The notes beneath the pieces are model-generated. The model searched no databases, was not told the origin of the DNA, and worked only from the letters and a program-made list of their open reading frames with translations. A stretch of 64,000 bases of DNA from Minisyncoccota bacterium (GTDB taxonomy: Bacteria > Patescibacteriota > Minisyncoccia > Phycocordibacterales > UBA9973), in NCBI GenBank assembly GCA_036517375.1, contig DATDWM010000017.1:3208-67207 (forward strand), in the 5' to 3' direction. Within the stretch, counting starts at the first letter, position 1, and every line of letters starts with the position of its first letter. This document shows, piece by piece, positions 6,931-35,087 of this stretch. The position numbers and the translations under genes were made by a program.

Positions 6931-6936
6931 AATGTT

Positions 6937-8439: not shown

Positions 8440-8459
8440 AAATTAAATATTTACTATGG

Positions 8460-9029: not shown

Positions 9030-9079
9030 GCTTTTAATATAGCATTTTTAAGGATCCTAGACAATTCACCTTGAAATAC

Positions 9080-9481: not shown

Positions 9482-9488
9482 GTTGTTT

Positions 9489-10292: not shown

Positions 10293-10293
10293 T

Positions 10294-10794: not shown

Positions 10795-10849
10795 AAATAA
10801 CCGACTATTTAGTATCCAAATTGTAGCAAATTTATGCTAAAATTGTAAT

Positions 10850-11515: not shown

Positions 11516-11525
11516 TATGTGCGTG

Positions 11526-11969
11526 CTAGCTAGGCGGATGATCCTTCATTCTTTTCTCTAGATGCACCAGCTTGTCTTCAATGCCCACTAAGGCGTCTTT
11601 GATACTAGAGATAGCGCCTACTTCATTCTTTACTTCGCCTTCTGTTTTTTCAGTCAGTCTTTTTTCACCGCGAAGCCCGGAGAGGATAAGCTCATTACCG
11701 ATGAAGCTCGAAATAAAAGCACCAGTAAAATATAAAATAGTACCTCCAACTAAAAGCGAAAAGGGTCCATCCCACCAAGGAGAGTTAAAAGCATCTGTAC
11801 TAAAATAGTCCTGGCCATAAGTTAAATAAGCATGAATCTGATCCGCGCTATGCCATATCCCCCGCCAGAACAACACAACGCCGATACCCACAATAAATGC
11901 GTAAGTCTTGGGTCGGTGGCTTAAAAATATAGTAATCCTCTGCTCCAATCTAGAAGTGATGCTTTTCAT
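11526..11969 (-). CDS. Hypothetical membrane protein
   Basis: Two predicted TM helices, C-terminal coiled-coil-like region; no recognisable family. Confidence 0.45.
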   Translation of the reverse strand: MKSITSRLEQRITIFLSHRPKTYAFIVGIGVVLFWRGIWHSADQIHAYLTYGQDYFSTDAFNSPWWDGPFSLLVGGTILYFTGAFISSFIGNELILSGLRGEKRLTEKTEGEVKNEVGAISSIKDALVGIEDKLVHLEKRMKDHPPS

Positions 11970-11992
11970 ATTACAAATATATCATACTTTTT

Positions 11993-12030
11993 AGAAATTA
12001 CTATAGTATGACTTGGCCGTAGTGGCACAG
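11993..12030. repeat. Left copy of 38-bp imperfect direct repeat flanking GC-rich insertion
   Basis: tagaaattactatagta exact 17-mer plus 16/21 following bases shared with 12996-13033; reverse complement encodes ...TTAKSYYSNF*. Confidence 0.7.
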
Positions 12031-12184
12031 ACCTACCGCTAGGTCTTGCCTAGCGGAGAAAAAATTTTTATCTTCACTTAAAATCAGATAGTTAAACGAA
12101 ACTCCCCGGATAAATCCGAGGAGAAATGAAAAGAGTTACGAACACCACCGAAGCGATAGTTCCGATTCACCAAGTCCTGAGGAC

Positions 12185-12811
12185 TTACTTACGGACACCA
12201 CCGAAGCGATAGCGCCGACGCCGCTGATAGGCGCACTGGTAAACGTACACCTCGCGCAAGTCGCCGTAGCGGTCGAACGAAGCGTAGCTAGCACTGCCGT
12301 TCTCCGAGAGATCCCACTGGCAACTATTAGGTCTCTCGGCCTTGTCGGCTCCGTTGACAGCACACTGCCAGTAAAAGTCCGGCACGAGATTTCGGAGTCC
12401 GTACTCGCGCGCGAGCTCCGTCGGTGTCGGATCGTAGTCGAGGTCGAAGAACCAGCCCTCGACCTCAACCACACCGTGCCCGGTCTTCGGTGCACGCTCG
12501 AGCACCTTGTCGTCAAGGTAACAGACAATCCGACCCATTGCGTCGAGTGCCTGTCGTTCCGTGCGGGTGTAATCCACCCGCGCCCGACGCGATATCATCT
12601 TCGCACGACGTTCCACGCGAGAGCGAAGACAGTTGAACATCTCCTCCACAAGCGCGTCACCTTCCTCTTCGAGCACCACCTGAACATCAGGGTGTGCGAG
12701 GGTTCCTCCGTCCTCACGGCACTTAGTCATGAACCAATCAGCTGCGCTGCTGGCCTGACCCATGTCCATGGGGACGAAGGAGACGGGGGCAACAACTTTT
12801 TTTTTAGTCAT
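12185..12811 (-). CDS. Hypothetical protein encoded in GC-rich foreign segment
   Basis: Sharp GC/codon-usage shift versus surroundings; AGGAG 9 nt upstream of ATG (MTKKKVVAPV); no recognisable domain. Confidence 0.5.
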   Translation of the reverse strand: MTKKKVVAPVSFVPMDMGQASSAADWFMTKCREDGGTLAHPDVQVVLEEEGDALVEEMFNCLRSRVERRAKMISRRARVDYTRTERQALDAMGRIVCYLDDKVLERAPKTGHGVVEVEGWFFDLDYDPTPTELAREYGLRNLVPDFYWQCAVNGADKAERPNSCQWDLSENGSASYASFDRYGDLREVYVYQCAYQRRRRYRFGGVRK

Positions 12812-12994
12812 CGGCGTCATCTCCTGGTTGTACCAATAGGGCTAAGTCCCTTTCGCCACAGCAGAAAAAATCCTTATCTAAAAGATACTCTCTGCTGTAG
12901 CGAATTTCACAAGTATTTAAAAGAGCATATATTTGCGCATTATACACCTTTTATGCTTAAAGGTCAATATTCTAAATACTCTTTATACTAAAGC

Positions 12995-14182: not shown

Positions 14183-14252
14183 ATTTGTGTTTTAATAATA
14201 GCATTTTAAAAAACAAATTGAAGTCTAGGTTGTTAATTGATATAATCAGGCT

Positions 14253-14945
14253 ATGGCTTCACGAATAATGGATAAAATCATAGCTTTCGTAAATCCAGTC
14301 AGGTTTAAGGAAGAAACAAGCTACCTGGAAAACATATTAAATGAATATAAGAGCAAACGTCCCAATTACGAAGAGTTCCGCGTAGCCGCCCACAAGACGC
14401 TTGAGGCATTGCTCAAGGAATTTGAGTATAAGTACCAGATTGTCTCTCGTACGAAGACCCATGCCCGCCTAGAGGAGAAACTCTTACGTAAAGCGGAAAA
14501 AGGCACGTATTATCATTCCGTAGAGGAAGTAGAGGACTTGGTGGGAATCCGGGTTATTTTCTATACCGAGAGTGACCGAGAAAAATTCGCTAAACAAATC
14601 AAGGATGAGATAGGTGGCTTTATGAAAATAGAAGAGAGGCAGAATGAAAATGGCTACAAGGCAACGCACATAGTAATGTCCTTCGGCCCAAAAAGAGTAA
14701 AGCTTAGTGAATATAAGCACTTCCATGGCCTCAAGAGTGAAGTACAGATTACTTCCATCCTGCATCATGCCTGGGCAGAAGTGGAACACGACCTCATTTA
14801 CAAAGACATCAACAACTTGAAAAGTCGCGACCCAGCAAAATTCGAACTCATGAAAGAAAAGATGAATAAACTACTAGAAAAATACATCAAAAAAGCCGCT
14901 GAAGAGCTAGAGAATATAATGCGTGACAGTATGGATCCGAAATAA
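14253..14945 (+). CDS. RelA/SpoT-domain protein (small alarmone synthetase-like)
   Basis: VSRTKTHARLEEKL..DLVGIRVIFY..GYKATHIVM..EVQITSILHHAWAEVEHDLIYK pattern of (p)ppGpp synthetase domain. Confidence 0.7.
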   Translation: MASRIMDKIIAFVNPVRFKEETSYLENILNEYKSKRPNYEEFRVAAHKTLEALLKEFEYKYQIVSRTKTHARLEEKLLRKAEKGTYYHSVEEVEDLVGIRVIFYTESDREKFAKQIKDEIGGFMKIEERQNENGYKATHIVMSFGPKRVKLSEYKHFHGLKSEVQITSILHHAWAEVEHDLIYKDINNLKSRDPAKFELMKEKMNKLLEKYIKKAAEELENIMRDSMDPK

Positions 14946-14946
14946 A

Positions 14947-15078
14947 TTATTTAGATCTTTTTCCTTTGCGAGCTCTCTTAGCCGCAAGCATAGCGTGCTT
15001 GATAGCTAGGCGCTTCTTGGTTTTGTGTGAACGTCTTGATTTTTTCTTCGGACTTAAAGTTGTGCTTCGTTTTGCCAT
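14947..15078 (-). CDS. 43-aa highly basic protein, possibly ribosomal protein bL34-like (not in ORF track)
   Basis: MAKRSTTLSPKKKSRRSHKTKKRLAIKHAMLAAKRARKGKRSK; length/composition and KRARKGKR tail resemble bL34. Confidence 0.4.
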   Translation of the reverse strand: MAKRSTTLSPKKKSRRSHKTKKRLAIKHAMLAAKRARKGKRSK

Positions 15079-15149
15079 GATATTTTAATTAAATTTATAA
15101 GCTAAGCCAGTATACCTTAATTCAATGATTTATGGAAGGCCCAGAAGAT

Positions 15150-16922
15150 CTAAGACCTTTCTCCTATCTGCTGGCGCCACATAGCGCTATAGAGTCCCCC
15201 TTTATCCAAGAGCTCAGTGTGTGAGCCATGTTCGGTAATGCTACCTTTTTCTAATACATAAATAGTGTCGGCATGCATGATGGTAGAGAGTCTATGTGCG
15301 ATGAGTATGGTAATGTGAGAACTCTTCGTAGATATTTTTTTGGAAAGATCTTTTATGGTTTTACTTATTTCTTCTTCCGTCAGAGAGTCAAGTGAACTCG
15401 TAGCTTCGTCAAAGATTAAAATATTGGGTTTGCGGAGTAAGGCGCGCGCAATGGATAAACGTTGTTTTTCTCCGCCGGAAACCTTGACCCCACCCTCACC
15501 AATGAGCGTGTCGAGCCCTTTACCCGCCCGTTCCAACAAGTTCTGACATTGGGCTTTATTTAAAGCGTCCATACATTCTGCATCTGTAGCAGTAGGCCGA
15601 ACGAAAAGCAAGTTCTCGCGTATCGTGCCGGCAAAGAGCTGCGTATCTTGGGTCACGAATCCGATCTGCACTCTTAGGTCTTCTTTATTCACAAGTTCGA
15701 AAGGTATATCATTATAATATATTCCCCCCTCTGTGGGCAAATAAAGCCCCACCAATAATTTGACTAGCGAGGTCTTCCCTGAGCCAGAGGGACCCACGAA
15801 AGCAATAGTCTGCCCACGAGTAACATTGTAGGAAATATTTTTAAGAGCCTTCTCACTGCTTGAATCATACTTGAAGGACACATCCTTGAAAGATAGATTT
15901 TCTATTGCGCCAATGTGTTTGGGGTCAGTGGCTACCTTTTCCTTGGGCGTGTTCATTAACTTTTCGAAATTCGCGAGGGAAGCTTCTGCTTCACGATACG
16001 TTCCTATTATGGCGCCAAGTTCTTGCAATGGAGTAAAGATATAAAAAGAGTATATGTAGAGGGAAAAGAATTGCCCGAAAGTAATAGTGCGATTAAAAAT
16101 TAAATATAACAAAAAGAATAAAATACTAGTGCGCAAGAAATTGATCACAGTGCCTTGAATAAAAGAAAGTGACCGTAGATAGCGGAGTTTTTTTAATTCT
16201 AAGATTAAGATCTTCTCGGTGGTGCTGTTTAGGCGTTCTACTTCCTGACCTGCTAGGCCTAGGCTCTTCACAAGCTCAATGTTCCGGAGTGACTCAGTAG
16301 TGGAGCCTGCTAAAGCCGTAGTTTCCGCCACTATCAGTGTCTGAATGTCTTTTATTTTCTTTGAAAGAAGTAGACTCATGCCAGAAATAACGGGAATGGT
16401 TGCAAAAAAAGCTACCGCTACCCCCCAATATATACTAGTGGCATAGATAGCTACAAAAATAAAACCGATTAAAGAAATAAATAGTATATTGACCAGTGCT
16501 GCTATTAACTTTTCTGTATCTTGTCTTACTTTTTGTAATTTACCCAGCGTCTCCCCGCTCCGTTCATCTTCAAAGATGCTATAAGGAAGTGACAGTGAGT
16601 GGGATATACCGTCCCGATACAAGTCCGCCCCTACTCTCTGACTGATACCATTTAGGAAATAGTCTTGGAAATTCTTGGCCACTCGGGATACGAAGGCCAC
16701 CCCCACAATAGCTAGTAGTAGTAGCCCAATCCCTTTGAAAAATTCAGGTTTGGTATACATATCCGGCTTTGTAGCATATTCATCGATAACATGCTGGAAG
16801 ATGTAAGGGTCAAGCAAAGAAAAAGTCTGGTTGATGGTGGCCAGCGTCAGGGTTAAAACACAGAGTTTCCAATATTTCTTTAAATAACTATAAAAAATAC
16901 GCATAAGGCTCCATCTTAGCAC
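15150..16922 (-). CDS. ABC transporter, fused permease/ATPase exporter (MsbA-like)
   Basis: 6 TM N-domain; Walker A GPSGSGKTS, signature LSGGEKQRLSIARAL, Walker B ILIFDEATS. Confidence 0.85.
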   Translation of the reverse strand: MLRWSLMRIFYSYLKKYWKLCVLTLTLATINQTFSLLDPYIFQHVIDEYATKPDMYTKPEFFKGIGLLLLAIVGVAFVSRVAKNFQDYFLNGISQRVGADLYRDGISHSLSLPYSIFEDERSGETLGKLQKVRQDTEKLIAALVNILFISLIGFIFVAIYATSIYWGVAVAFFATIPVISGMSLLLSKKIKDIQTLIVAETTALAGSTTESLRNIELVKSLGLAGQEVERLNSTTEKILILELKKLRYLRSLSFIQGTVINFLRTSILFFLLYLIFNRTITFGQFFSLYIYSFYIFTPLQELGAIIGTYREAEASLANFEKLMNTPKEKVATDPKHIGAIENLSFKDVSFKYDSSSEKALKNISYNVTRGQTIAFVGPSGSGKTSLVKLLVGLYLPTEGGIYYNDIPFELVNKEDLRVQIGFVTQDTQLFAGTIRENLLFVRPTATDAECMDALNKAQCQNLLERAGKGLDTLIGEGGVKVSGGEKQRLSIARALLRKPNILIFDEATSSLDSLTEEEISKTIKDLSKKISTKSSHITILIAHRLSTIMHADTIYVLEKGSITEHGSHTELLDKGGLYSAMWRQQIGERS

Positions 16923-21252: not shown

Positions 21253-21918
21253 CTATTTTTCGTCAATAACTCCAATTGATTGCTCATACAGTTTTTCTGT
21301 CTGTGAAAACATCCAGTTGATAAATTTTAGTACTTTTGGATGAAACTCGCAAAGGTTGAAATTGAAGTTAGACAGCAATAGAATCAAGTGACTCCCAACC
21401 CAACTCGTAGAACCTCCTTCTAGGCTTAGAAGTACTTCTTTGTGCAAGCTTTCATCCTCTCCACGTGGGTAATCAACAGACCGATGAGATGCCCATTTGT
21501 TAGAAAGGACATTTACCATTCCTTCTTTATCCACAACTGAATCCCATATCTCTTTTAACTCTAAATCTTTTGGAGGATTTAATTTTAAGGATTTAATAAA
21601 AAAACTAGCACGCCTTAATTGACAAAGGTATGCTTGTACCTCGAACTTTATATTTGCTTGTGATTTTTTAATTTCTGCCCATTCTTCATCTGTATGAAAT
21701 CTGTTTACATATAATGATGGAACTCCTTTTTCTTCTAATTTCCTAAAATTGGCAAAATGATATTCTAAAGCCTCAGGTAGAACTCTTTGAAAAGTTAAGA
21801 TTTGAAAGTTTTTTAAGCCTTGCCATTTTTTCTTATCAGCAATATTTTTCTCACGCGATTGTACTGGAACAAAAGTACTTATAAGAATTCTTTTAGAAGA
21901 GTTGTTATTTTTTGACAT
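21253..21918 (-). CDS. Hypothetical protein, 3rd gene of NTPase operon
   Basis: Co-directional, 38-bp gap to upstream gene; no recognisable domain. Confidence 0.5.
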   Translation of the reverse strand: MSKNNNSSKRILISTFVPVQSREKNIADKKKWQGLKNFQILTFQRVLPEALEYHFANFRKLEEKGVPSLYVNRFHTDEEWAEIKKSQANIKFEVQAYLCQLRRASFFIKSLKLNPPKDLELKEIWDSVVDKEGMVNVLSNKWASHRSVDYPRGEDESLHKEVLLSLEGGSTSWVGSHLILLLSNFNFNLCEFHPKVLKFINWMFSQTEKLYEQSIGVIDEK

Positions 21919-21956
21919 ATAGATTTGAGTTTATTTTTTGATTCATAATATTTAGA

Positions 21957-23474
21957 CTATCTGGGGATTTTAGACACTTCAAAAATAAAACGTTTACGTC
22001 TTGTGTCTTCAGGCTTATACTCCCACCCTGTGCCATATCTATCTATTTTACTTTTATCTAGGTCTCCACAGGTTATAAGTCTTAATTTATTTTTTCTTAA
22101 AAATGTTTTAAGATACTTACCTTTAATAACTAAAACACTACCGTGGTCTGCCAAATGATGTTTATCCTCTCCATAGTTACTAACACTTGATACAAAGCCA
22201 TTTTGCCAATTTATAGTTTTAATCACTAATTCATTTTTACTAGTATAGTATTCCAGTGTCCCTTTGCGTTGTTTTAATTTAAGCTGTTCAACTATTTCTG
22301 GTGCAGGAAAGACAGGATTAAAAATATCGCCAAAATTTGTTTCTGAAATTATTCCGTAAGCAGGAAACAACTTACCATTTAGTTCTGTTCTATTGTGGTC
22401 AGAAACAAATAATTTCTTACTTTTATAAGCAAATATTGGAACTTCATCAATTAAACAGTTGTTACAACTATAAGAAGGCGGGAAAACTTCTTTTTTATCA
22501 TTTATTTTATTTAAATTTTCTGTCGTAAAACCGCTAAAAGTCTTACGGGAGAGCAATTTATCTTCAAAACGAATGCGTGTGTCCTCATATAACACAACCC
22601 ACGGCTGGTTTAAACCTGTTAGATTATAGATGTTCTTCCTCTTTAATTTGTCTTTCAACCAAAATTCTGTTTTTACCTTAATATTCTCGAATTTTATAAA
22701 ATCTGGTCTATCGGTAATCAAGTCCTCAACCCACACTGGTTCATAATTATAATTCTCCTGTAAAAACTCCCTCCAGCGAGATTCTTCGACTGGTAAGTTT
22801 TTTATACACCACATTAGAAAAGTTTGTATCCCGTGATAGGCACAATAATGCAATTTAGTTTTATAGGACTCATTTCTGGAGTAACCCCGATTCCACCTAG
22901 TAGGTACATCTTCCCAGTATTTTTTACCCTTTCGATAACCAAGCACCTTCATATTCTGCAACAATTTCTTGTAACCTTTTTTGCCCGCATATTTAAATGT
23001 ATTGCATATGTTATCAAGCTTATATTTGTAGTCACCCCCTCCTAGGGTGTACTCTACGAAATGTTCAGAACTATATCGATACCAATCTTGCTGGGTATCG
23101 GGAGTAAACTGTGTGGGGGTAACTAATTTAAGAGACTCCGCAAATATATTCTTAGCAGAAGATTTAAAATTACTTAGATTTTCCAAGATATTTTTTGATA
23201 AATAAGCAATCTTGAAATGGTTACAGCGTTTTGCAGTTTTTAAGATACTTTCTTTGATGGAAAGTATTCTTTCGGGAGCCTTGTAGCTAAGACGAAATAA
23301 AACTTTTAGAGAGTTCTCGACTATATCTAGGTTCTCAGAAAGTAGATTTTTCCTTAGTTCATTAATGGTTTTTTCATTAATTAGAGCATTTTCATATAGT
23401 GCTTTTTCTGCACTACCTCTCCATTTAAAAGGGGCAACACCGAGATATTTAGATATAAATTGTAAGGATTTCAT
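21957..23474 (-). CDS. Hypothetical protein, 2nd gene of NTPase operon
   Basis: Starts 4 bp after stop of 1578-aa gene; no recognisable domain. Confidence 0.5.
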   Translation of the reverse strand: MKSLQFISKYLGVAPFKWRGSAEKALYENALINEKTINELRKNLLSENLDIVENSLKVLFRLSYKAPERILSIKESILKTAKRCNHFKIAYLSKNILENLSNFKSSAKNIFAESLKLVTPTQFTPDTQQDWYRYSSEHFVEYTLGGGDYKYKLDNICNTFKYAGKKGYKKLLQNMKVLGYRKGKKYWEDVPTRWNRGYSRNESYKTKLHYCAYHGIQTFLMWCIKNLPVEESRWREFLQENYNYEPVWVEDLITDRPDFIKFENIKVKTEFWLKDKLKRKNIYNLTGLNQPWVVLYEDTRIRFEDKLLSRKTFSGFTTENLNKINDKKEVFPPSYSCNNCLIDEVPIFAYKSKKLFVSDHNRTELNGKLFPAYGIISETNFGDIFNPVFPAPEIVEQLKLKQRKGTLEYYTSKNELVIKTINWQNGFVSSVSNYGEDKHHLADHGSVLVIKGKYLKTFLRKNKLRLITCGDLDKSKIDRYGTGWEYKPEDTRRKRFIFEVSKIPR

Positions 23475-23478
23475 AGTA

Positions 23479-26400
23479 TTATGCTTTTGTTAAAGATAAC
23501 CGCATAGATTCTTCGACCGTTTCTTTTAGAGGATGGAAAGCATACTTCTTCAATTCAGGAAAAAAAGAATCTATAACGTCTGAGGTTCTGACTAATAAAT
23601 AATTCAAATAATAACTACTTTCTGATGACTTATAAATAGAGAGACGGATAACTTTTTTTAGAAATTCCTTTTTATTTTCAAATTCCATTTGTGCTAGCTT
23701 ATTAACAAGCTCTGGAAGATTGTATGGATATTCTTGGTTGTTGCAAAAATCCAAAATGTCCCCCTTAATCTCCTTAAGGTAAGCTTTGTCCTTATTTTTT
23801 ACAGACAAATCAAGTAGTGAACATAGAATATTGTAGGTAAGAAATTCAACGTTATTTTCTTTACACCACAGTTTTACCTTGCTAATAATTTTAAGGTCAG
23901 AGTTTGAAACAATCTCTAGTATTAAACCATCAATTTTATATTTTTTATCTTCCTTAATAAAAGAATCTAGTAATCCAGTTATCTTTTTCATAGACCTGTT
24001 CCGTGCAAAAGATTTAGCCTGTTTAATGACTGCTAGCGGTATTAACTCTGAGTTAGGGGTAGTTGGTATCACTGAATATCCGTCAAGTTCTAATTGGGCG
24101 ATATACTTCTTTATATCCCCATACTCTCTTTTTAAATCATTCTTTTGTTTTATAAACGTTACTAATTCATTTAATAGGGTTAATCTTGCCCCAACATATA
24201 CATATCTACGCAAGTAAATACAATATCTACTTAAAAATAATCTGGCGTTAGGAATATCATTATTTTTTAGAGAGTGGTCAATCAAGGCGTAGTAAATAGC
24301 TTTGATATTTGGTTGTTCTCGGTCAGTCTCTTCATCAAATCTTACTAAACCTAGCAATGGCATTAGTTCTGGAGCAATAGTTTGATATTTATACCTATCA
24401 AGACTAGCCAGAATTACTTTTTTTAACCCCTCATTCAAATTAACTTCTCCTTTGTTTGTCAGTTCTATTAGATAATCAAGACCTAATTCATAATTTGAAT
24501 ATGCAACTGATTCTATAAAACCTAATTTATAATACCAGCTACCCTCAACAACACTACTGATTTTATCGATATATTTAAGAATGGTTTCAAAATCATCTTT
24601 TTTATTTTGAGTTCTAAGACAGTCAATTAAATTCAAAATTCTCAAATCCTCTTTTGCCCATAAGCCACGAGAATATTTAAGAGAATGCTTATAGATATTC
24701 TCTGCTGATTCTCTATAACCCTTACTATTTACTGTTCTTGCTAATTCCTTCAGACCATCACTTTTTGCAAAATTATCTTGCTTTTCTTTGGTTTTAAATT
24801 CAAGTATCTTTTTTTGGTATAACACTACCTTTGATACTAAGGCGGGGGTGATTGGCAACAGTTCATCGAAGGTGGTCTCTAATAAACTTTGATTTTTCTC
24901 TAAGATTGTATTTTTGAAAACCGATTCGACGACATCAACAAAAGATTCTAATTTTTTAGGAAAATACTTAGCTACAGTATTCAAACAAATCCCTACGAAT
25001 GAAGTTGCATTTTGATAGTAGACAAAAGCTGTTTTCTCAAAAGGAGATTCTCTTAGTTGTTTATACTCACTAACTTGTGAAATTTCCTTTTTAAATACAC
25101 TAAGACTTTCCATAATAAAATGGTTTAATCTTTTCCAGTCCATTTTTTTATTTTTTACAAAAAGAATATTACGGTAAAGCAATATGTAGGTTGAAACTAT
25201 GTTAGCGAAAGCATCATTCTCATAGTCCTTAAAATGTTCTTTATGATATTTTTTCTGGGCATCAATGAGAAATTCCTTCGGATTAAAATTTTTAGTAACA
25301 ATACTTAACAAAGCGGTTCTTCGGAGGAATAACCCCTTGCCGTTTATTCCCCAGTTAGAATACATATCTCTGTGATAAGGTGGCTCAAAGTCAACTCCAG
25401 AAATTAATTTAGATATGGAAGATTTTGATTCGCTTGTGTTTAACAAATATGAGACTTCGGCTATATCTAGTTTCTGATTTATATATCGGTCGTTGATTAA
25501 ATATTTGAATAACTGATACTGTTTAATAAGAGTTTTGAGTTTCTTTTTGGCAGTAGTATCTTTTTTCTCTATATAAAGATACGCATAGGTTATGAGCTGT
25601 ATTGCCTTGGATTGCCTATTTATAAAATGTAACACTGCCTTTTTTTCTTTTGGGTATTGAACTCTATTCAACTTTATTAACATACTAGCTCGGAATCCCA
25701 CTGTATAAGGTTTAGGCTCTTTAAAACGAATATTTTCAATATATCTTACAGCTCCATCGTATCTACCTAAGTTAATACAAGCTTCTAAATACTCTACGAT
25801 ATTATCCCAGTACATATCCGTATTACCATTTTCCATCATTTTTCTATCCCAAAGAATATCTTTATTAAAAGAAATACGAGCTAATCCATCTTCTAAAAAT
25901 CGAAGGGCTAAATTTTTAGAAGGACTGTCTTCTCTGGTATATAAAAAATTACCCAATCTAATTCGCTTCATTACCCATTCTCTTAAATTGTACAGAGATT
26001 GGTTTTGTAATACATCAAGTTCAGCCTCAACTTCTTTAAGAAGGTTCGGTGTACCGATACTGCTTTTCAGAAAAGTATCGTCATCGGACATCCGAGCAGG
26101 ACTTAAATTACTAATCTTAACTGAATATTTAATAAAATTCTCTAAATCATTTTTTGCATCAAAGTATTTTGTAAAATAATGTAAAGATTCAATTTTTGAA
26201 CCATAATCTAGTTTAGAATCAAAAATTGTTTGAATGAAATTATTTTGAATTAACTTCTTTGTAATTTGCTTAGTAAACGGGTCAGAACTGCCAATTACCC
26301 GCAAATGATTAGTTAAGTATTTTTTCGGATAGGCTAATTTGAGATTACCTTTAGTTGAATAGAATCTTATTATTTTTCGGTTATATTCTTTCTGAACACT

Positions 26401-28215
26401 TGTTAGTTTATTACGAATGAATCTTCTAAAACTATCGTGGTATGGTTCGATATATCCTCCACGCAAGTTCACGAAGGGACTTATTTTTTCGTTAAGGTCA
26501 TTAAAATTCTCTAACTTAATTTTCGCTACCTTATAGAGTGTGTCTCTTTGGATTTCAGCAAAATGAAAACTTAGACAACCAAGACAGTGTTTCTGTCTTG
26601 TGTTCAGGCTGTCCCAGATGGGTTTATACCAATCGAAGACTTCTTTATAATCTTCTTTGCTGTCTATAATGCTGTCATAGTCTTTTCTTGAAATCTTTTT
26701 TAACTTTTGTGTTAAATAAAAAATAGAAATAGCCAACCCTTTCGTTTTTTTAGATATTTTTCTTAATTGGTCAATAGTTAGATTAATTTCCGCATTTTTA
26801 AAATATTCTTTTATTTCATTCTCGCTAAATGACAAACTAATAGAAATCTTTCTAGAAGTTTTGTCTGGAAGGTTTTTTATCTGTTGCGGAAGATATTCTT
26901 TTGTCCAAGTACTTAACAAAAAGACTACGCCAGCATATTGAATTGAAGGTATGGCATTTAGGATAGACTTATCTTTGTAGTTGTCAGTTTCTACTTGGTC
27001 TAAAGCGTCTACAATTATTACAATTTTTTTATCCTTACGTTTTAATGCTGATTCGCTTACTTGATTTAATGTTTTCTCAAACATTTTATTTATAAATTCT
27101 TCATTATCCTTAAGGCTGACAGTTTCTTTTGTAAGTCCCAAGTCAAAAAAGCGTTGAATCAGGTCAACCTTAAACCACATACTACTTAAACGTTCTTTCT
27201 CATAATTTAAATTCGAGTCAATTTTCTCAAAAGGTCTAATACGACAAAGGTAGGGTAAAAAATCAGCGTTGGTTTGTGTAAGCTTTGAGAGTAAGACTGT
27301 TTTCCCCGAACCAGAGGGGGCAAAAAGGAAAACGAAACCACCTTTCTTTTTTTGTTTATTTACAGCTTTAAGTATCTCAACTTCAACCGCTTTTCTTTGA
27401 ATGTAATTTTTAGGAGTATTTATCTCGTGAACTAAACTCGTTTTAATAATTTCAATCAATCCAAGTACATCCGCCTTTCTAATGATAGTTTCTTTTTGAG
27501 TAAATTTTTTAAAGGTTCTACTTATAAAAGCATCAACTCTATCATTATCAGAAATGCCAAGAAGCCCTAATTCTTTTTTGAGTTTGGATTCTATGCCGTC
27601 ATTGTCTGTGGAAATTTGAAATTCAAAAGATTTTATAAAAGCTTCTAGTTCGCCACGCTTTAGACGAGTTTTAGTGAAATTAGATTTAATGTTTAAAAGT
27701 TCCGTTTTATATTTATCACTAAATTTACTCCAAGTTATCTTTTTCTGATTCAACTTTTTTATATCACTAAGAAACTTCTTCAAGTCTGACCCAAGTGGTT
27801 TGTTGCTAGCAAGAATTAACTTAACTTTATTCTTTTGTCCTTTATGAAATCTCCAAGCTTTAAGGAATTTAAAAATTACAGTTCCTTCGTACTTAGAATT
27901 TTTCTTAGCACTTTTTTTCTTGGCAGTTTCCTTGGATTCCCATAGACCACTATAAGTCCAACTACTGCTTACTACATCAGTGTACTTAAGTTGAATGACT
28001 TCAATGGACTTATCTTCAAAAAATCGGGTTATGTCCTCTATACGTCTTTTTGCTCCTCCTTTCCTGTCTGGTTTGATTTCGACATAAGAAAGCTTACTAT
28101 CGGTCTTTATTAATTTTGTAAACTCTAGAGCAGAAAAAACCTTTTCGAAGTACTGAGAAGTATCTTCGTTTCGATTTAGTATATGACTTTTGGATGTCTT
28201 CTTTTTTCCTTTCAT
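23479..28215 (-). CDS. Giant (1578 aa) P-loop NTPase, STAND/AVAST-like candidate defence protein
   Basis: Walker A GGFVFLFAPSGSGKTVLLSK (~aa 297), Walker B KIVIIVDALDQVE (~aa 400), >1100-aa helical C-terminal region, N-terminal region with PD..QLK (PD-(D/E)xK-like) pattern. Confidence 0.6.
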   Translation of the reverse strand: MKGKKKTSKSHILNRNEDTSQYFEKVFSALEFTKLIKTDSKLSYVEIKPDRKGGAKRRIEDITRFFEDKSIEVIQLKYTDVVSSSWTYSGLWESKETAKKKSAKKNSKYEGTVIFKFLKAWRFHKGQKNKVKLILASNKPLGSDLKKFLSDIKKLNQKKITWSKFSDKYKTELLNIKSNFTKTRLKRGELEAFIKSFEFQISTDNDGIESKLKKELGLLGISDNDRVDAFISRTFKKFTQKETIIRKADVLGLIEIIKTSLVHEINTPKNYIQRKAVEVEILKAVNKQKKKGGFVFLFAPSGSGKTVLLSKLTQTNADFLPYLCRIRPFEKIDSNLNYEKERLSSMWFKVDLIQRFFDLGLTKETVSLKDNEEFINKMFEKTLNQVSESALKRKDKKIVIIVDALDQVETDNYKDKSILNAIPSIQYAGVVFLLSTWTKEYLPQQIKNLPDKTSRKISISLSFSENEIKEYFKNAEINLTIDQLRKISKKTKGLAISIFYLTQKLKKISRKDYDSIIDSKEDYKEVFDWYKPIWDSLNTRQKHCLGCLSFHFAEIQRDTLYKVAKIKLENFNDLNEKISPFVNLRGGYIEPYHDSFRRFIRNKLTSVQKEYNRKIIRFYSTKGNLKLAYPKKYLTNHLRVIGSSDPFTKQITKKLIQNNFIQTIFDSKLDYGSKIESLHYFTKYFDAKNDLENFIKYSVKISNLSPARMSDDDTFLKSSIGTPNLLKEVEAELDVLQNQSLYNLREWVMKRIRLGNFLYTREDSPSKNLALRFLEDGLARISFNKDILWDRKMMENGNTDMYWDNIVEYLEACINLGRYDGAVRYIENIRFKEPKPYTVGFRASMLIKLNRVQYPKEKKAVLHFINRQSKAIQLITYAYLYIEKKDTTAKKKLKTLIKQYQLFKYLINDRYINQKLDIAEVSYLLNTSESKSSISKLISGVDFEPPYHRDMYSNWGINGKGLFLRRTALLSIVTKNFNPKEFLIDAQKKYHKEHFKDYENDAFANIVSTYILLYRNILFVKNKKMDWKRLNHFIMESLSVFKKEISQVSEYKQLRESPFEKTAFVYYQNATSFVGICLNTVAKYFPKKLESFVDVVESVFKNTILEKNQSLLETTFDELLPITPALVSKVVLYQKKILEFKTKEKQDNFAKSDGLKELARTVNSKGYRESAENIYKHSLKYSRGLWAKEDLRILNLIDCLRTQNKKDDFETILKYIDKISSVVEGSWYYKLGFIESVAYSNYELGLDYLIELTNKGEVNLNEGLKKVILASLDRYKYQTIAPELMPLLGLVRFDEETDREQPNIKAIYYALIDHSLKNNDIPNARLFLSRYCIYLRRYVYVGARLTLLNELVTFIKQKNDLKREYGDIKKYIAQLELDGYSVIPTTPNSELIPLAVIKQAKSFARNRSMKKITGLLDSFIKEDKKYKIDGLILEIVSNSDLKIISKVKLWCKENNVEFLTYNILCSLLDLSVKNKDKAYLKEIKGDILDFCNNQEYPYNLPELVNKLAQMEFENKKEFLKKVIRLSIYKSSESSYYLNYLLVRTSDVIDSFFPELKKYAFHPLKETVEESMRLSLTKA

Positions 28216-28396: not shown

Positions 28397-28831
28397 ATGC
28401 CAGCAGGAAGACCAACAGAATACAGTGAAAACATACTCTCTAAATCAAGAGAGTATGTTGATTCTTGTGTGGATGAGCTAGAAGACCGACCAAAAACAGT
28501 TGGGACAAAATCCACTTCCTACGAGAGGGTTATCAAGGTTAATTTACCTACAATAGAAGGTCTGGCGAGCCATTTAGGGCTTGCTAGAAGCACTTTATAC
28601 GAGTGGAAGGACAAATACACTGAATTTTCGGACATCTTAGAGATACTTTTAGCACATCAGGCAACTGCTCTTATTAATAATGGTTTGTCAGGAGACTATA
28701 ATGCGACCATAGCTAAGCTTCTTCTAATGAAGCACGGCTATAAGGAAGATGCCCGAATATACGAGAGAATCACTGGGAACGAAATTATCTTCAAGGATAT
28801 GTCTGTGGTAGGAGTTAGTGAGTCCGATTAA
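28397..28831 (+). CDS. HTH DNA-binding protein resembling phage terminase small subunit
   Basis: N-terminal GRPTEY and HTH LPTIEGLASHLGLARSTLYEW pattern typical of TerS-like proteins. Confidence 0.45.
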   Translation: MPAGRPTEYSENILSKSREYVDSCVDELEDRPKTVGTKSTSYERVIKVNLPTIEGLASHLGLARSTLYEWKDKYTEFSDILEILLAHQATALINNGLSGDYNATIAKLLLMKHGYKEDARIYERITGNEIIFKDMSVVGVSESD

Positions 28832-29308: not shown

Positions 29309-30172
29309 TTAGTTGCAATAAACTGTGTTACCGATAAAATTACAAATTGTTGTTGGGTGAGGTGGTGTTGAATAATAAGCATCGGGTTCACACGCTTGAT
29401 AATATTTGTTCATAAGCGGAGTAGATTTTATTGCCAAATCAGCTCCCTTAGAAGCTAGTTCGCTTGACTCTTGTGAACCAGCATCAGCTTCTTCCATACG
29501 AGCCAAGTTGTCGTCTAGTTGTTTTTGTATACTGTCATAAGCTTTCTTGGCACTTACGCATTCTGGGCTATTGTGTATTTTATCTTCGGCTTCTTGTTTA
29601 GCATTGGCTTGGTCTTTAAGCTGTTGATTTAAAATATCATATGCAGAGGGTTGAGAAGATGTTGGACTAGGTTGTCCGCAGGAAGCTTCACCTATGGCTG
29701 GGCAGTAAAAAGGATTCTCAACAGAACAATTGGAAATATTGTAAGATTTTCCATTGCATACTCTTATATTATCCAGTTCACTTTGAGTGTAACAACCAGA
29801 AGCGTTGTCGGGGCTACAGAAAAACTTTTTACCAAGAGATGGACAGGTGTCTTTTATTTGTTGACCATTGCACATCACTATATTTTCTTGGGTGGGTATA
29901 CTCTTTTTAACTGGGGCTGTTACTTTAGGAGCAGGTGTAGTTGTTTTGGGTTGTTGATTTTTTAAATCATCAATTTGTTTTTGTAGTTCTTGAATTTGCA
30001 CTGTCTGGTCTGGTGCTGGTTTAGTATCCGTTACTTGCACTTGTGGTGCAGGAACTTCTTTTTTATGGAATATGCTCCAGCTAAAAGGATTCCACCAAGA
30101 GGCAAAAGTAATTTGTGGAATCAAAATGATTGCGACCAAGATAACAGAAACTATATTTAACTTATTTTTCAT
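29309..30172 (-). CDS. Secreted Cys-rich protein with Pro/Gln-rich linker (start set at MKNKLNIV signal peptide)
   Basis: Signal-peptide-like segment begins at internal Met; upstream 50 codons of ORF-track call overlie a structured GC-rich non-coding-looking element. Confidence 0.55.
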   Translation of the reverse strand: MKNKLNIVSVILVAIILIPQITFASWWNPFSWSIFHKKEVPAPQVQVTDTKPAPDQTVQIQELQKQIDDLKNQQPKTTTPAPKVTAPVKKSIPTQENIVMCNGQQIKDTCPSLGKKFFCSPDNASGCYTQSELDNIRVCNGKSYNISNCSVENPFYCPAIGEASCGQPSPTSSQPSAYDILNQQLKDQANAKQEAEDKIHNSPECVSAKKAYDSIQKQLDDNLARMEEADAGSQESSELASKGADLAIKSTPLMNKYYQACEPDAYYSTPPHPTTICNFIGNTVYCN

Positions 30173-30363
30173 AAAATAAAAAGCTAGCTGATAAGAGCTA
30201 GCGTGGAAAACACAGAACCCCACGCCAGCTAGGTCTTGCGACCCCATATCAGTTTCCCGATATAGCCCTTGGAAGAGTTGCTGAACGCAGGGTTCAGTAT
30301 CTTCCAAGGGTCTTTTGACCATATCCTAAAGGTGTCTTTAGGGGTTAGGTCGCATATTAAGTT
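30173..30363 (-). promoter_or_regulatory. Highly structured GC-rich leader/intergenic RNA element ending in terminator-like hairpin + U-run
   Basis: Nested inverted repeats (CCCTTGGAAG...CTTCCAAGGG 10 bp; CTGAAC/GTTCAG; CCTAAAG/CTTTAGG; CGTGG/CCACG; GCTAGC x2) and on minus strand GCTAGCucuuaucaGCTAGC followed by UUUUUAUUUU right before ATG. Confidence 0.4.
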
Positions 30364-31631: not shown

Positions 31632-32196
31632 AAAAACAAAATGGAATTGAGTGCGGAAGCAGTAAAAGATTTGAGGGAAACACTAGAACTGGAAATAGGA
31701 GTGAGGAATACAAACAGGATGAGTGATAACGACTTAGAACATATAGGTTGTTTTTTCCTTGAAACTTTTAAGCAGGGTTTGAAGAGAAGAGTGTCTAAAA
31801 TTTAATATCTAAAACAGCTTTAGGGGTTCGCTGTATAAACCACTCCTATAAACGAAACCAGTAAATCGGACTCAAATGCGAAAGCACGGAAAAACAGTTT
31901 ATCCCTCTGTCCGTGCCATCTGATTTGTGCCTGATTGCTGATTACAGAAAATGGATTTTCAAAGGTAAGTCGCATTTGTTTGTAAAAGATATTGATAAAT
32001 ATAGCTGTAATAATTACCTTTTAGAGAGAATCAGAGGTAAAAGGGAGGGTGTGTCTAAAATGAGAAAAATGTTATAATGAGGAAGCCAGACCGAGTGAAA
32101 ATCTATAAGCCACATTTAGTAATGCTTGTAGGTAAGAATGAGGTAGCAACCACTTGGTCTGGCGATTAAGTAAAGTTGTTACCTCATTTTTATTTT

Positions 32197-33876
32197 ATGA
32201 ATCCAATAGATTTTACAAAGTTAAAGGTAGGAAATTACAATCGTAAGTCGTCAGAGAGTGAAGATAGGCAGGTTCTTTCAATTCAATCACAGATTGATGA
32301 AGCTAAAAGAATAGCGGATTATTATAAACTCTCTCCATATGTAGAGGTATACAAAGAATCAAAATCAGCTAAAACAGAAGGTGTGAGACCAGAGTTTTCG
32401 AGGATGATGAAAAGAATAAGAAATAAAGAGATTGATGCGATAGCGTGTTGGAAAGCTGATAGACTAGCAAGAAATATGGCAGAGGGCGGTGAACTAATTG
32501 ACCTTTTGAGTTCTGGAACTTTAAAGGCAATAATCACTCACGATAAAGTATTCTATCCTTGGGATAATGTTATGGTTTTAGCAATAGAGTTTAGCCAAGG
32601 AAAACAATTCGTAAAAGAACTCTCTATAAATGTTAAGAGGGGTCAAACTAAAAAGGCAACTATGGGTTATCCGCACGGACTAGCCACTCTTGGCTTCACA
32701 AACGACAAAACAGAAGAGAAAGGAAATCGTAAATGGCTAGTGGACGAAGTTCGTCTTCCTGTAGTTAAGCAAATGTTAGAAATGTTTTTATCTGGTAATT
32801 ACTCTGGCACACAAATCTATGATTGGGCTATTAATGTTGCCAAACTAACTACCCCTAATCACAAAAAATGTGGTGGAAATTTTATTGCCTACTCTAGGGT
32901 TTATACAATTCTTAAAGACTCTATCTATGCTGGATTTTTCTACCAGCAAGGACAAAGGTATGAATTGTCTAAAGAACTCCCTCGTCTTATTTCAGAAGAT
33001 GACCATAAGAAGATTTTAAGAATGTTGTCTAGTAGAAAACTTCCAAAGACTCAAACTCACGAAAATCCTTACTCTGGTTTTATAGAATCTCCTTCTGGTG
33101 AATTTGTAGGAGCAGATATGAAGTTTCAAATAATTTGCCAGTGTAAACACAAGTTTGCATATCAAAATAAAACAAACTGTCCTAAATGCGAAATAGCCAT
33201 AAACGATATTAAAAACCCTAAGTATCTTAGTTATGCTTATTACTACAACGTGCCAAAAAGAAAGAAGAGAGAATCCGTAAAATACATCGAGGAGGGCAAA
33301 ATTACCACTTTTTTTCGCTTATATGCAGAGAAAAATCTAACTATGTCAAAATCCCTAGCCCAATGGTGCAAAAGACACATTAAGGAGATAAAAGACAAAG
33401 AGATAGAGACAGGTTTAATTGAATCCTCTGGTAATACTCAACGATTAGAGCAATTAGAGGGACGATTAACTAGATACCGTCAAATGCTTGCAGATGGTCA
33501 AATTGAAACTTCTGAATATGATTCCGATGTAAAATCAATAAAGGATGAAATTTCAGAAATTAAAAATCCTAAAATTAAAAATCGTGATTGGCATCAAGTT
33601 GCAGAAGATATTGTTGATTTAACTACTGAAATAATTGAAACGCTGGAAAATGGTTTGGTAAAAGACCAAAGAGCGATGTTTACAAAGCTTGGTTCGAACC
33701 TAATATGGAATGAGGAAATACTAAATATTATCAACGCAGAACCAATGCAGAAGCTGATTGATGGCTTAAATGAAGCTAAACAAAAGAATCCCAAGTTCGA
33801 ACCTGAAAATATTGTTGATACAACAGAACAGAATGAGGTTTTTGAGGACATTTGTCCTATCTTGCTCCGGGGGTAG
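32197..33876 (+). CDS. Large serine recombinase (resolvase/invertase-type catalytic domain + recombinase/zinc-ribbon/coiled-coil C-terminal region)
   Basis: N-terminal YNRKSSESEDRQVLSIQSQ (catalytic Ser), ...ARL..., Cys pairs (CQCKHKF...CPKC), ~560 aa; ATG at 32197 preferred over upstream TTG. Confidence 0.85.
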   Translation: MNPIDFTKLKVGNYNRKSSESEDRQVLSIQSQIDEAKRIADYYKLSPYVEVYKESKSAKTEGVRPEFSRMMKRIRNKEIDAIACWKADRLARNMAEGGELIDLLSSGTLKAIITHDKVFYPWDNVMVLAIEFSQGKQFVKELSINVKRGQTKKATMGYPHGLATLGFTNDKTEEKGNRKWLVDEVRLPVVKQMLEMFLSGNYSGTQIYDWAINVAKLTTPNHKKCGGNFIAYSRVYTILKDSIYAGFFYQQGQRYELSKELPRLISEDDHKKILRMLSSRKLPKTQTHENPYSGFIESPSGEFVGADMKFQIICQCKHKFAYQNKTNCPKCEIAINDIKNPKYLSYAYYYNVPKRKKRESVKYIEEGKITTFFRLYAEKNLTMSKSLAQWCKRHIKEIKDKEIETGLIESSGNTQRLEQLEGRLTRYRQMLADGQIETSEYDSDVKSIKDEISEIKNPKIKNRDWHQVAEDIVDLTTEIIETLENGLVKDQRAMFTKLGSNLIWNEEILNIINAEPMQKLIDGLNEAKQKNPKFEPENIVDTTEQNEVFEDICPILLRG

Positions 33877-33936
33877 GGATCGAACCTACGACCAATCGCT
33901 TAACAGGCGACCGCTCTACCGCTGAGCTACCCCGGA
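33865..33936 (-). tRNA. tRNA-Asn (anticodon GTT)
   Basis: Cloverleaf folded manually: acceptor TCCGGGG/CCCCGGA, D-arm GCTC-AGCGGTA-GAGC, anticodon stem GTCGC/GCGAT loop CTGTTAA, T-arm GTAGG-TTCGATC-CCTAC; no encoded CCA. Confidence 0.85.
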
Positions 33937-34617: not shown

Positions 34618-34972
34618 GGTAGGTGCTGGATAACTACTCTGTATTTATACAGGGAGGAAAGTCCGAACACAGTCCCGATTTATCGGGAAAATAAGTAGTG
34701 GGTAACGCCCACATGTAGTGATACATAGGTGCGAGCAGAGACGCCGATGCCGAAAGGCTAGGACCCCTTTGGGGTAGCCTGATAGGAATATCAGGGTGAA
34801 ACGGCTAAATCCTTACTTCTGTGCAAGATCGCGCCCTTTGAATGCCTCAGGACTAGTTCCGAGCGTAGTCGAGGGGAGAATCGCTTGATCCGCCTGGTAA
34901 CAGGCACGACAGATAAATTGTTATCATTCCAACGCAAGTTGAAAAACAGAATTCGGCTTATAGGCACCTACA
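34618..34972 (+). ncRNA. rnpB: RNase P RNA (bacterial type)
   Basis: GGGAGGAAAGTCCGAACAC (P4 5' strand) and ACAGAATTCGGCTTATAG (P4 3' strand); P1 pairing GGTAGGTGC/GCACCTAC defines ends. Confidence 0.8.
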
Positions 34973-35087
34973 AGAAAATGAGAGTCCCCTACAGAAATGT
35001 GGGGGATTTTCTTTTAAATAATTACCTGAAATCTTTTCAGCATTTTAGCATTTACGTACGACCGTTTCTTATTGCTAAAATAAAATA

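Follow-up and report, generated by a model that had tools for sequence, protein, structure and literature searches.

A candidate two-gene Avs-type defence system with a probably split sensor on a serine-recombinase island of Patescibacteria

Organization of the locus

The stretch of DNA analysed here, hereafter the window, comprises 64,000 nucleotides of a contig of a Minisyncoccota bacterium (GenBank DATDWM010000017.1). Three co-directional genes, designated A, B and C, follow one another with gaps of 4 nt (A–B) and 38 nt (B–C), and the ORF coordinates bear out the compact arrangement described in the initial annotation (Table 1). The AT-rich block reported there is likewise apparent, with a GC content of 0.31–0.33 over 21–28 kb of the window (31% GC within the block) against approximately 0.40–0.46 in the flanks. 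The large serine recombinase said to abut a tRNA indeed does so, its gene overlapping that of tRNA-Asn(GTT) by 13 nt. The island additionally carries a small-terminase-like gene, as found in phage satellites. A direct-repeat search for the att sites of the island gave nothing convincing, and the scan for promoters and terminators returned counts at or below shuffle expectation and is hence uninformative.

Table 1. Features of the locus; positions are counted from the first nucleotide of the window.
Feature	Position	Strand	Description
Gene A	23479..28215	minus	1578-aa ORF: Cap4-like nuclease, STAND NTPase and helical sensor (Avs-like)
Gene A, aa ~18–265	27421..28164	minus	Cap4-type PD-(D/E)xK nuclease effector domain; invariant E24, D50, D61, Q75-x-K77
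Gene A, aa ~270–620	26356..27408	minus	STAND NTPase module (NBD-HD1-WHD); motifs, weak Pfam matches, fold searches
Gene A, aa ~621–1578	23482..26355	minus	Helical-repeat sensor region; AF2 all-alpha part, colinearity with unsplit family
Gene B	21957..23474	minus	505-aa ORF
Gene C	21253..21918	minus	221-aa ORF
Large serine recombinase/integrase	32176..33876	plus	Pfam Resolvase and Recombinase; PHROG integrase 2.5e-42
tRNA-Asn(GTT)	33864–33936	minus	ARAGORN and Rfam

Domain architecture of the large protein

The product of gene A joins an effector, a STAND NTPase and a large C-terminal repeat sensor, which is the tripartite architecture of Avs proteins. The separate N-terminal module proposed earlier is confirmed, with a length of ~265 aa. 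PADLOC endonuclease models match this nuclease domain; in the Cap4-model match with a stated range only the nuclease part is aligned (positions 16–122 of 489). The Walker A motif APSGSGKT (aa 299–306, core GSGKT 302–306) precedes the Walker B motif IVIIVDALDQ (aa 398–407, acidic residues D403/D406) by approximately 100 aa, as was first noticed, and both are invariant across 29 homologues, among which the His-containing WHD motif PYHDSFRRF (aa 591–599) is invariant or nearly so.

The AF2 model of aa 1–1200 (pLDDT 81) finds its best structural matches in SeAvs3, MalT, Cap4, Apaf-1 and CED-4, and NRC2 superposes on it as well. Within this model aa 594–1200 are all-alpha at high pLDDT, so that the helical character ascribed to the C-terminal region holds for the modelled portion, whereas its length past the WHD is ~960 aa rather than the suggested excess over 1100. 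Within the complete sensor, aa ~621–1578 would probably make up the N-terminal two thirds. Conservation in the A family amounts to 0.54–0.58 in the sensor region and 0.76 in the NBD.

The sequence models recognise this protein only faintly. Thresholds of Pfam, PADLOC v2 and NCBIfam all miss the A/B family, and none of the curated Avs, PADLOC or Pfam models reaches threshold with A; the protein of the window scores 22.6 bits against a gathering score of 24.8 for NPHP3_N and 17.2 against 26.7 for NACHT. The STAND matches, though sub-threshold or marginal, are consistent across 29 members (NPHP3_N in 29, nSTAND5 in 26, NACHT in 12). The Avs-like reading of the initial annotation stands on the Cap4–STAND–sensor architecture and the fold match to SeAvs3, but not on any curated Avs model. 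Could A instead be a housekeeping NTPase of the KAP/AAA+ type, and its neighbours no defence genes at all? Weak matches to KAP_NTPase (12 of 29 members, best 2.4e-5) and AAA (16 of 29) point that way, and the P-loop by itself resembles that of ABC ATPases, the only P-loops that the A-family profile found among PDB sequences. The fit to these families is, however, no better than that to STAND models, and STAND structures outrank AAA+ proteins in both fold searches with the A model. The WHD with its conserved His motif, the fused Cap4 nuclease and a very patchy spread over several phyla, always in variable regions, likewise make a housekeeping role scarcely credible.

Distribution of the gene pair and its islands

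Genes A and B occur together, at 35–87% identity, in 13 loci with unrelated flanks, in several CPR phyla and in Ignavibacteria. The full-length A family is rare (28 clusters, mostly CPR/Patescibacteria). The pair invariably lies in variable regions, and its distribution is extremely patchy. Its neighbours include R-M, SIR2, HEPN, NERD and RT genes. In 9 of the 13 loci the pair has a homologous large serine recombinase in its vicinity, and tRNA-Asn also adjoins the A/B islands in loci L001, L005, L015 and L017. The tRNA-Asn(GTT) gene is the insertion site of the island and a recurrent hotspot, and the serine recombinase belongs to the context of the island, outside the defence mechanism.

This association with mobile elements raises the question of whom the genes serve. 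They might act mainly for the element itself, for instance in addiction or in exclusion of competitors, rather than in anti-phage immunity of the host, a distinction that partly dissolves, given the overlap of the two roles. The recurrent recombinase and tRNA-Asn insertion and the satellite-like small-terminase gene agree with such a role. We nonetheless hold it to be quite unlikely: in loci L005, L008 and L009 the pair lies beside R-M and other defence genes with no recombinase nearby, A-family relatives were absent from the phage genomes and IMG/VR viral contigs searched, and the characterised proteins with the architecture of A are anti-phage (PMC12803255).

Gene C as a passenger

The initial annotation proposed a three-gene system, and within the window this impression is understandable, as C is co-directional, begins just 38 nt past B and is separated from it by no terminator-like site on the operon strand in the scan, whose counts were at or below shuffle expectation. 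None of the 12 other A/B loci contains gene C, however, not even one that is 85% identical, and C belongs to a family of its own with 19 members, which occurs without A/B in islands L011 and L013. This leaves a system of two genes: A and B are conserved as a unit (13/13 loci), C accompanies them in 1/13, and a functional contribution of C is highly improbable. C is a separate passenger gene, unrelated to A/B. It matches nothing in Pfam, PADLOC or NCBIfam, and its membership in some other conserved gene set was rejected, C alone being shared among its loci. Of the multi-component variant envisaged initially, there remain two genes kept together; C is no component, and B is probably the C-terminus of the sensor.

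Gene B as an obligate partner

Gene B accompanies A obligately and is translationally coupled to it. In every one of the 13 loci it is the gene immediately following A, the two genes share an ATGA overlap in 9 of these, and the identity of B across loci tracks that of A. A profile search among 1.84 billion (1.84e9) representatives retrieved only seven clusters, all of them the B family itself, and B was found nowhere apart from A.

The protein displays an ARM/HEAT-like segment (aa 22–119) followed by a domain without a recognised fold. Its conservation equals that of the sensor region of A, no catalytic domain is recognisable in it, and neither Pfam nor PADLOC yields a match. Searched against PDB sequences, the B profile yielded no more than a marginal ARM repeat at E about 1, and SeAvs3 was not found. 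The structure predicted from five sequences has a pLDDT of 40. The NCBIfam Avs3a model is matched weakly and colinearly at its end (positions 1969–2066, 11.4 bits with a cut-off of 2800), and two of ten B members touch this model. Nor does B duplicate any part of A.

Unsplit relatives and the origin of gene B

What could be the nature of gene B? A probable answer is offered by an unsplit Cap4–STAND family of single ORFs of ~2000–2064 aa, listed as ‘ATP-binding proteins’ and carried by the plasmids pEC-14-2-9-2 of E. coli (WP_072643907.1) and pNHAL01 of Nitrosococcus, by plasmids of Agrobacterium, Rhizobium and Rhodococcus, and by metagenomes (L036–L039). Residues 15–1573 of A are colinear with columns 17–1519 of this family (hhalign 99.3–99.7%, E 6e-21 to 8e-27), the sensor region corresponding to columns ~600–1519. 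The top match for pieces of B is the remainder, columns 1540–2025, with weak scores (hhalign <7%, P 0.008–0.08). Placement was tested with three pieces, two of them non-overlapping, and all choose the colinear position, so that A and B, whose lengths fit, jointly span the unsplit profile from one end to the other. As A fills columns 17–1519 and the pieces of B take 1540–2025, B probably represents, as a gene of its own, what in the unsplit relatives are the C-terminal ~500 aa of the sensor, as judged from sequence comparison. Should B indeed match the last ~500 residues of the relatives, the sensor would be split into two reassembling polypeptides.

In a control with 12-column block shuffling of B from residue 125 to its end, 79% of top matches still fell in the CTD. 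The shuffled sequence lands there because one short motif block is preserved, and this control is therefore no independent test of position. The best-scoring part of the match between B and the CTD is helical repeat, of a type that can match without homology. No A–B fusion was found within the CPR family.

An alternative is that B is a true accessory subunit unrelated to the CTD of the unsplit proteins, acting as a regulator or inhibitor that holds A inactive, a specificity adaptor or a second effector, in which case A/B would be a genuinely two-component Avs. The statistical weakness of the similarity between B and the CTD leaves room for it, as do the restriction of detectable B relatives to A/B and the lack of PDB, Pfam and PADLOC matches. 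Other Avs with accessory genes exist (Avs2-trypsin-MBL), and in the Gammaproteobacterial cousins a 1580-aa protein is accompanied by an unrelated partner of ~290 aa. Yet the three pieces of B and the independently curated Avs3a model all pick the colinear position, the tiling matches in length, and B shares the conservation of the A sensor and bears no recognisable catalytic domain. We consider an accessory subunit somewhat unlikely and prefer the detached sensor terminus.

Proposed function

Taken together, A and B fairly probably constitute a two-gene Avs-type defence system with a split sensor, residing on a tRNA-Asn-integrated serine-recombinase island. We infer an antiviral function by analogy, and the mechanism outlined here is a model borrowed from the characterised SeAvs3 and SeAvs7 (PMC12803255, PMC13601566). 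The sensor formed by A and B would bind a conserved phage protein, for which the large terminase, a trigger of Avs1–3, provides the precedent (PMC12803255, PMC13601566). Binding would relieve autoinhibition, the ATP-bound NTPase would then oligomerise into a tetramer, and the Cap4 domains thereby brought together would degrade dsDNA indiscriminately, aborting the infection.

A bolder interpretation is that the fission was not neutral but gave rise to an immune receptor built of two modular chains. Gene B would then supply an interchangeable subunit for specificity or regulation, which attaches to the solenoid of A by way of its ARM/HEAT-like N-terminus. We think this unlikely. If true, the receptor would recall plant NLRs with their sensor/helper pairs, would have persisted for a long time in the very small genomes of CPR episymbionts, and could employ B to gate activation or to recognise targets beyond the terminase, portal and capsid triggers known for Avs.

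CPR/Patescibacteria have genomes of ~1 Mb, and few defences are known in them. The locus described here would mean that an Avs-type system of 6.3 kb resides in them on small islands with a serine recombinase at tRNA-Asn, and it would add to the Avs and bacterial NLR-like receptors a member whose split is ancient and stable. A naturally split sensor would be a handy tool for studying the role of the C-terminal lobe of Avs sensors in target binding and autoinhibition. It also urges caution, since a ‘multi-gene STAND system’ can be one receptor broken into two ORFs. The pair reveals no new defence principle.

Comparison with known systems

A characterised protein close in fold is SeAvs3 (AVAST type 3; PDB 8DGC), a Cap4 nuclease–STAND–TPR sensor of the phage large terminase. 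The A model matches it in fold, whereas significant sequence similarity is absent throughout, sensor included, and SeAvs3 is a single polypeptide where A/B has two ORFs. The profiles of A, B and the unsplit family (the last finding only EcfA P-loops) all miss 8dgc among PDB sequences, so that nothing connects them with SeAvs3 at the sequence level. Nor does A match the NCBIfam Avs3a model NF041816 (cut-off 2800 bits) at E<=1. By sequence, the NTPase of the A family is closest to the NCBIfam Avs1b model NF041810, which is matched by family member P0007 (1.4e-5, 22.4 bits) and in relatives by cousin L026 (2e-8) and a Vibrio plasmid protein (4.8e-39), at 32–133 bits; all these scores, 22–133 bits against an equivalog cut-off of 1500, concern the NTPase region only. 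NCBIfam describes Avs1b as protease-bearing, whereas A carries a Cap4 nuclease. Avs1 reportedly resembles Avs3 in structure (PMC13601566).

The unsplit ~2050-aa family has the nuclease, Walker and WHD motifs in common with A, and its neighbours include defence genes, among them Dsr1 and AbiE. It differs in its identity to A of only ~14%, in its occurrence in Proteobacteria and Actinobacteria rather than CPR, and in the covalent attachment of the C-terminal ~510 aa, which in A/B are probably encoded by the separate gene B. Two overlapping ORFs of the same superfamily are seen on the Vibrio cholerae IncC plasmid pW6G (1250 + 800 aa) and in Pseudomonadales/Psychrobacter pairs (1580 + ~290 aa), with split points different from that of A/B. 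The second ORF of pW6G clearly represents the C-terminal part, as tblastn relates it to the CTD of the E. coli protein at 2e-5, but this split could stem from a recent frameshift. The ~290-aa Gammaproteobacterial partners resemble neither B nor the CTD significantly, and their relationship to B was rejected.

The nuclease fold of the A N-terminus is that of the CBASS effector Cap4 (PDB 7YIB, 6VM6). In CBASS, however, Cap4 has a SAVED sensor and a CD-NTase gene, whereas A has its nuclease joined to a STAND NTPase, and no CD-NTase gene was found in the neighbourhood within the window or among recurrent A/B neighbours. Activation would therefore proceed by STAND oligomerisation rather than by a cyclic nucleotide.

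Searches of the literature by accession and of supplements found no earlier listing of the A/B family, and the name ‘Avs3B’ returned nothing. A ‘split-TPR variant of Avs1’ with a split sensor is reported by Evans et al. 2026 (PMC13601566). What is new here is probably the two-ORF split of an Avs-like Cap4–STAND protein, the underlying Avs1/Avs3-like kind being already known.

Conservation and setting of the gene pair

The layout described in the initial annotation, three co-directional minus-strand ORFs with gaps of 4 nt (A–B) and 38 nt (B–C), is confirmed by the ORF coordinates; its reading as a three-gene system is not. When the window was compared with 12 further distinct loci (13 A/B loci), a B homologue of ~495–507 aa was found to begin directly at the end of A in all 13, while C was missing from all 12 others, the 85%-identical locus included, so that synteny holds for A–B and fails for C. 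The A stop and B start overlap as ATGA in 9 of the 13 loci and lie 1–6 nt apart in the remainder, a spacing that indicates translational coupling. The identity of B across loci (87/54/42/38...%) parallels that of A (85/59/40/38...%), and an all-against-all neighbour comparison returned three recurrent families and no more: A and B, each in 13/13 loci, and a large serine recombinase in 9/13. Homologues of C form 19 clusters, with some proteins assigned by NCBI to Paceibacterota and Simkania. They occur without A/B in other mobile or defence islands, at whose ends they lie: one adjoins T5orf172 and a putative R-M-like pair of type III (N6_N4 methylase + ResIII), another has HEPN_AbiV and tyrosine integrases nearby; no co-conserved partner of C was seen in its own loci (L011, L013). 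Because C is missing from the 12 other loci and found elsewhere without A/B, the unit is two genes, A and B, with C an unrelated passenger.

The AT-rich block noted earlier is evident (GC 0.31–0.33 at 21–28 kb vs ~0.40–0.46 elsewhere), as is its right edge, a serine recombinase whose 3′ end shares 13 nt with tRNA-Asn(GTT), an overlap repeated in the island of the closest relative (L001). This tRNA is a recurrent insertion hotspot for A/B islands across different CPR lineages; no att repeats were identified at these islands. The surroundings of A/B loci are otherwise unrelated to each other, with MutH + DNA methylase, NERD, SIR2_2, HEPN, DUF4238, an RT-trypsin fusion and serine recombinases among the neighbours. 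In a Saccharibacteria locus (L007) the fusion is flanked on both sides by serine recombinases, immediately upstream of A/B, and in L010 B shares its end with an overlapping HEPN gene. A-family relatives were not found in phage genomes or IMG/VR viral contigs.

Inside the ~12.7-kb island of the window, a small-terminase-like gene adjoins A divergently. An integrase is present, with no other recognisable phage structural genes, and the content is reminiscent of phage satellites (PICI-like) with defence cargo. LOOT RNA (gathering score 46.4) overlaps the 5′ end of a 337-aa ORF in the window and lies ~320 nt upstream of A in L001. It was not found in five more distant A/B loci and seems to belong to the serine-recombinase element of the window/L001 lineage. 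Directly beyond tRNA-Ala and tRNA-Asn lies an RNase P RNA that barely reaches its gathering score (100) and may be divergent, and a lone GC-rich kilobase (0.518 vs ~0.40 in its neighbours) coincides with mutually overlapping ORFs.

Features of the window and of retrieved relatives' loci (L handles)
Locus	Feature	Position	Strand	Remarks
Window	A	23479..28215	-	ORF, 1578 aa
Window	B	21957..23474	-	ORF, 505 aa
Window	C	21253..21918	-	ORF, 221 aa; no family match
Window	Small-terminase-like gene	28397-28831	+	Pfam GP3_package 1.4e-20; PHROG terminase small subunit
Window	337-aa ORF	29309..30322		
Window	LOOT RNA	30231-30351	-	RF03000, 81 bits
Window	Large serine recombinase	32176..33876	+	Pfam Resolvase + Recombinase; PHROG integrase 2.5e-42
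Window	tRNA-Asn(GTT)	33864-33936	-	
Window	RNase P RNA, bacterial class A	34618-34976	+	Rfam, 100.2
Window	GC-rich kilobase	12001-13000		
Window	Overlapping ORFs	12136..12991		no Pfam match
L001	tRNA-Asn(GTT)	6193-6265		
L001	LOOT RNA	9550-9680	+	83.9 bits
L005	tRNA-Asn(GTT)	6261-6335		
L015	tRNA-Asn(GTT)	27-101		
L017	tRNA-Asn(GTT)	1206-1280		
L007	RT-trypsin fusion	3784-5400		RVT_1 + Trypsin
L010	HEPN gene	16203-16646		
L011	C homologue	8001-8651		
L013	C homologue	8001-8657		
L025	Overlapping two-ORF superfamily member	9890-15488		
L026	Overlapping two-ORF superfamily member	9788-15392		
L027	Overlapping two-ORF superfamily member			
L029	Overlapping two-ORF superfamily member	6001-12148		
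L030	Neighbour of unsplit plasmid relative	2558-5620		
L033	Neighbour of unsplit plasmid relative	1558-4620		
L031	Neighbour of unsplit plasmid relative	7306-9329		
L035	Neighbour of unsplit plasmid relative	3331-4846		

Architecture of protein A

Profile searches, proposed at the outset for all three proteins, gave only sub-threshold signals for A (NPHP3_N, NACHT, nSTAND5 and AAA_16 in Pfam, a P-loop match in PADLOC, ABC-type P-loops in NCBIfam) and no match for B or C. Among 5.8 billion protein clusters just 28 relatives of A were retrieved, all full length (1540–1586 aa, 36–85% identity); their hosts among one-genome-per-species contigs are CPR (Saccharibacteria, Nomurabacteria, Nealsonbacteria, Parcubacteria, Falkowbacteria, Levyibacteriota) and two Ignavibacteria. 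The arginine decarboxylase of the window shares 67% identity with one encoded on a contig where another protein is placed by NCBI in Candidatus Paceibacterota, which makes a CPR/Paceibacterota-like genome the probable source of the window. The Walker A (APSGSGKT, aa 299–306) and Walker B (IVIIVDALDQ, aa 398–407) motifs recognised initially are invariant across the family. The N-terminal module, correctly set apart, is a Cap4-type nuclease: in a PADLOC scan of every member, 14/29 matched the CBASS Cap4-type 'Effector Endonuclease' model (best 1.9e-8) and 7/29 SAVED_PDDEXK, and the structure model has an alpha-beta-beta-beta-alpha-beta core with invariant E24 (helix 1), D61 (strand 2) and Q75-x-K77 (strand 3). 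The NTPase resembles the Avs1b NTPase region of AVAST (1.4e-5 for the family member P0007; 2e-8 and 4.8e-39 for relatives), and the predicted structure bears out the helical repeat-like region, with repeats throughout residues 594–1200. Because of these nuclease matches, core and residues, the Avs1b link and the repeats, A is a Cap4 nuclease–STAND NTPase–helical sensor protein. This is the architecture of SeAvs3 and SeAvs7 (PMC12803255), and the supposed likeness to antiviral Avs proteins stands. Assignment to KAP or housekeeping AAA+ proteins was rejected in favour of this architecture.

B as a probable detached part of the sensor

What could be the nature of B? It matches nothing in Pfam, PADLOC or PHROG, and both downstream proteins are, as first described, without a recognisable family. 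Searched exhaustively with a HMMER profile, 1.84 billion representatives yielded only 7 clusters, all of the B family itself. The AF2 model (5 input sequences, pLDDT 40) is confident at aa 22–119 only, predicted as an ARM/HEAT-like helical repeat. Conservation of B (0.54–0.61) equals that of the sensor region of A (0.54–0.58).

Gammaproteobacterial relatives of A are pairs of 1580 + ~290 aa. A further distant relative, a Vibrio IncC plasmid protein, served as bait and retrieved unsplit single ORFs of 2021–2064 aa on plasmids of E. coli, Nitrosococcus, Agrobacterium, Rhizobium and Rhodococcus, and a split pair on V. cholerae pW6G; four more unsplit members are metagenomic (1998–2043 aa). Split points vary (1580 + ~290 aa in Pseudomonadales/Psychrobacter, 1250 + 800 aa in pW6G), both differing from A/B, and neither B nor the C-terminus of the unsplit proteins is detectably similar to the ~290-aa partners. 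The unsplit plasmid relatives, labelled only 'ATP-binding protein' by PGAP, adjoin a ~1020-aa DEAD/DEAH helicase-family gene in E. coli and Klebsiella, Dsr1 in Nitrosococcus and AbiEi/AbiEii in Rhizobium.

Profile-profile comparison joined the A family to the unsplit family (99.7% probability, E 7.7e-27), A 15–1573 covering columns 17–1519 of 2029, with ~510 C-terminal columns left unmatched; the leftover residues (505–515 aa) equal B in length (493–507 aa). Against this region B scored 30.4 (P 0.008), compared with 13.7–15.0 for reversed profiles and averages of 15.8–22.3 for column/block shuffles; 0/60, 2/60 and 0/60 shuffles reached 30.4. Non-overlapping pieces of B were also run one at a time against all 2029 columns, and the best match of each was the colinear site. 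The top match of B 3–102 was columns 1542–1642 (P 0.048; score reached by 0/28 shuffles, whose top matches spread across the entire profile), and that of B 226–446 was columns 1773–1980 (P 0.017; 1/28 shuffles); B 387–448 maps to columns 1921–1980, and a relaxed alignment places B 1–494 on columns 1540–2025. B 389–492 also weakly matches positions 1969–2066 of the 2083-position NCBIfam Avs3a model (E 0.03); A and B together measure 1578 + 505 = 2083 aa, and the match is therefore colinear with the end of full-length Avs3. These scores are each weak, the signal is partly helical repeat, and one of the block-shuffle controls says nothing independent about position. B is nonetheless probably the detached C-terminal part of the A sensor, given that the offset is consistent, the lengths agree, the Avs3a match is independent and other split relatives exist.

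Comparison with known Avs systems

If A and B act as SeAvs3 and SeAvs7 do (PMC12803255, PMC13601566), they would form a single receptor, whose sensor would bind a conserved phage protein, relieving autoinhibition. Tetramer formation by the ATP-bound NTPase of A would follow, placing the Cap4 domains side by side to degrade dsDNA and abort infection. The precedent trigger for Avs1–3 is the large terminase; the A/B sensor has no detectable sequence similarity to Avs1–3 sensors.

In mode of action A may be likened to Avs3/Avs7. Its modelled structure is nearest SeAvs3, and by sequence its NTPase is nearest Avs1b. Since A falls below the curated equivalog thresholds of both Avs3a and Avs1b, it is classed neither with Avs3 nor with Avs1 in the strict sense. 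The Cap4-STAND superfamily to which it belongs is unnamed, and most of the other members are single proteins of ~2050 aa. In the searchable literature no family accession turned up, although the 589-clade STAND survey (PMC12803255) may include the family. The undescribed multi-component variant suspected initially survives as a split two-gene form with B, C not being a component. What is new is this split, CPR-borne form; the Cap4-STAND (Avs-type) design itself is already known.
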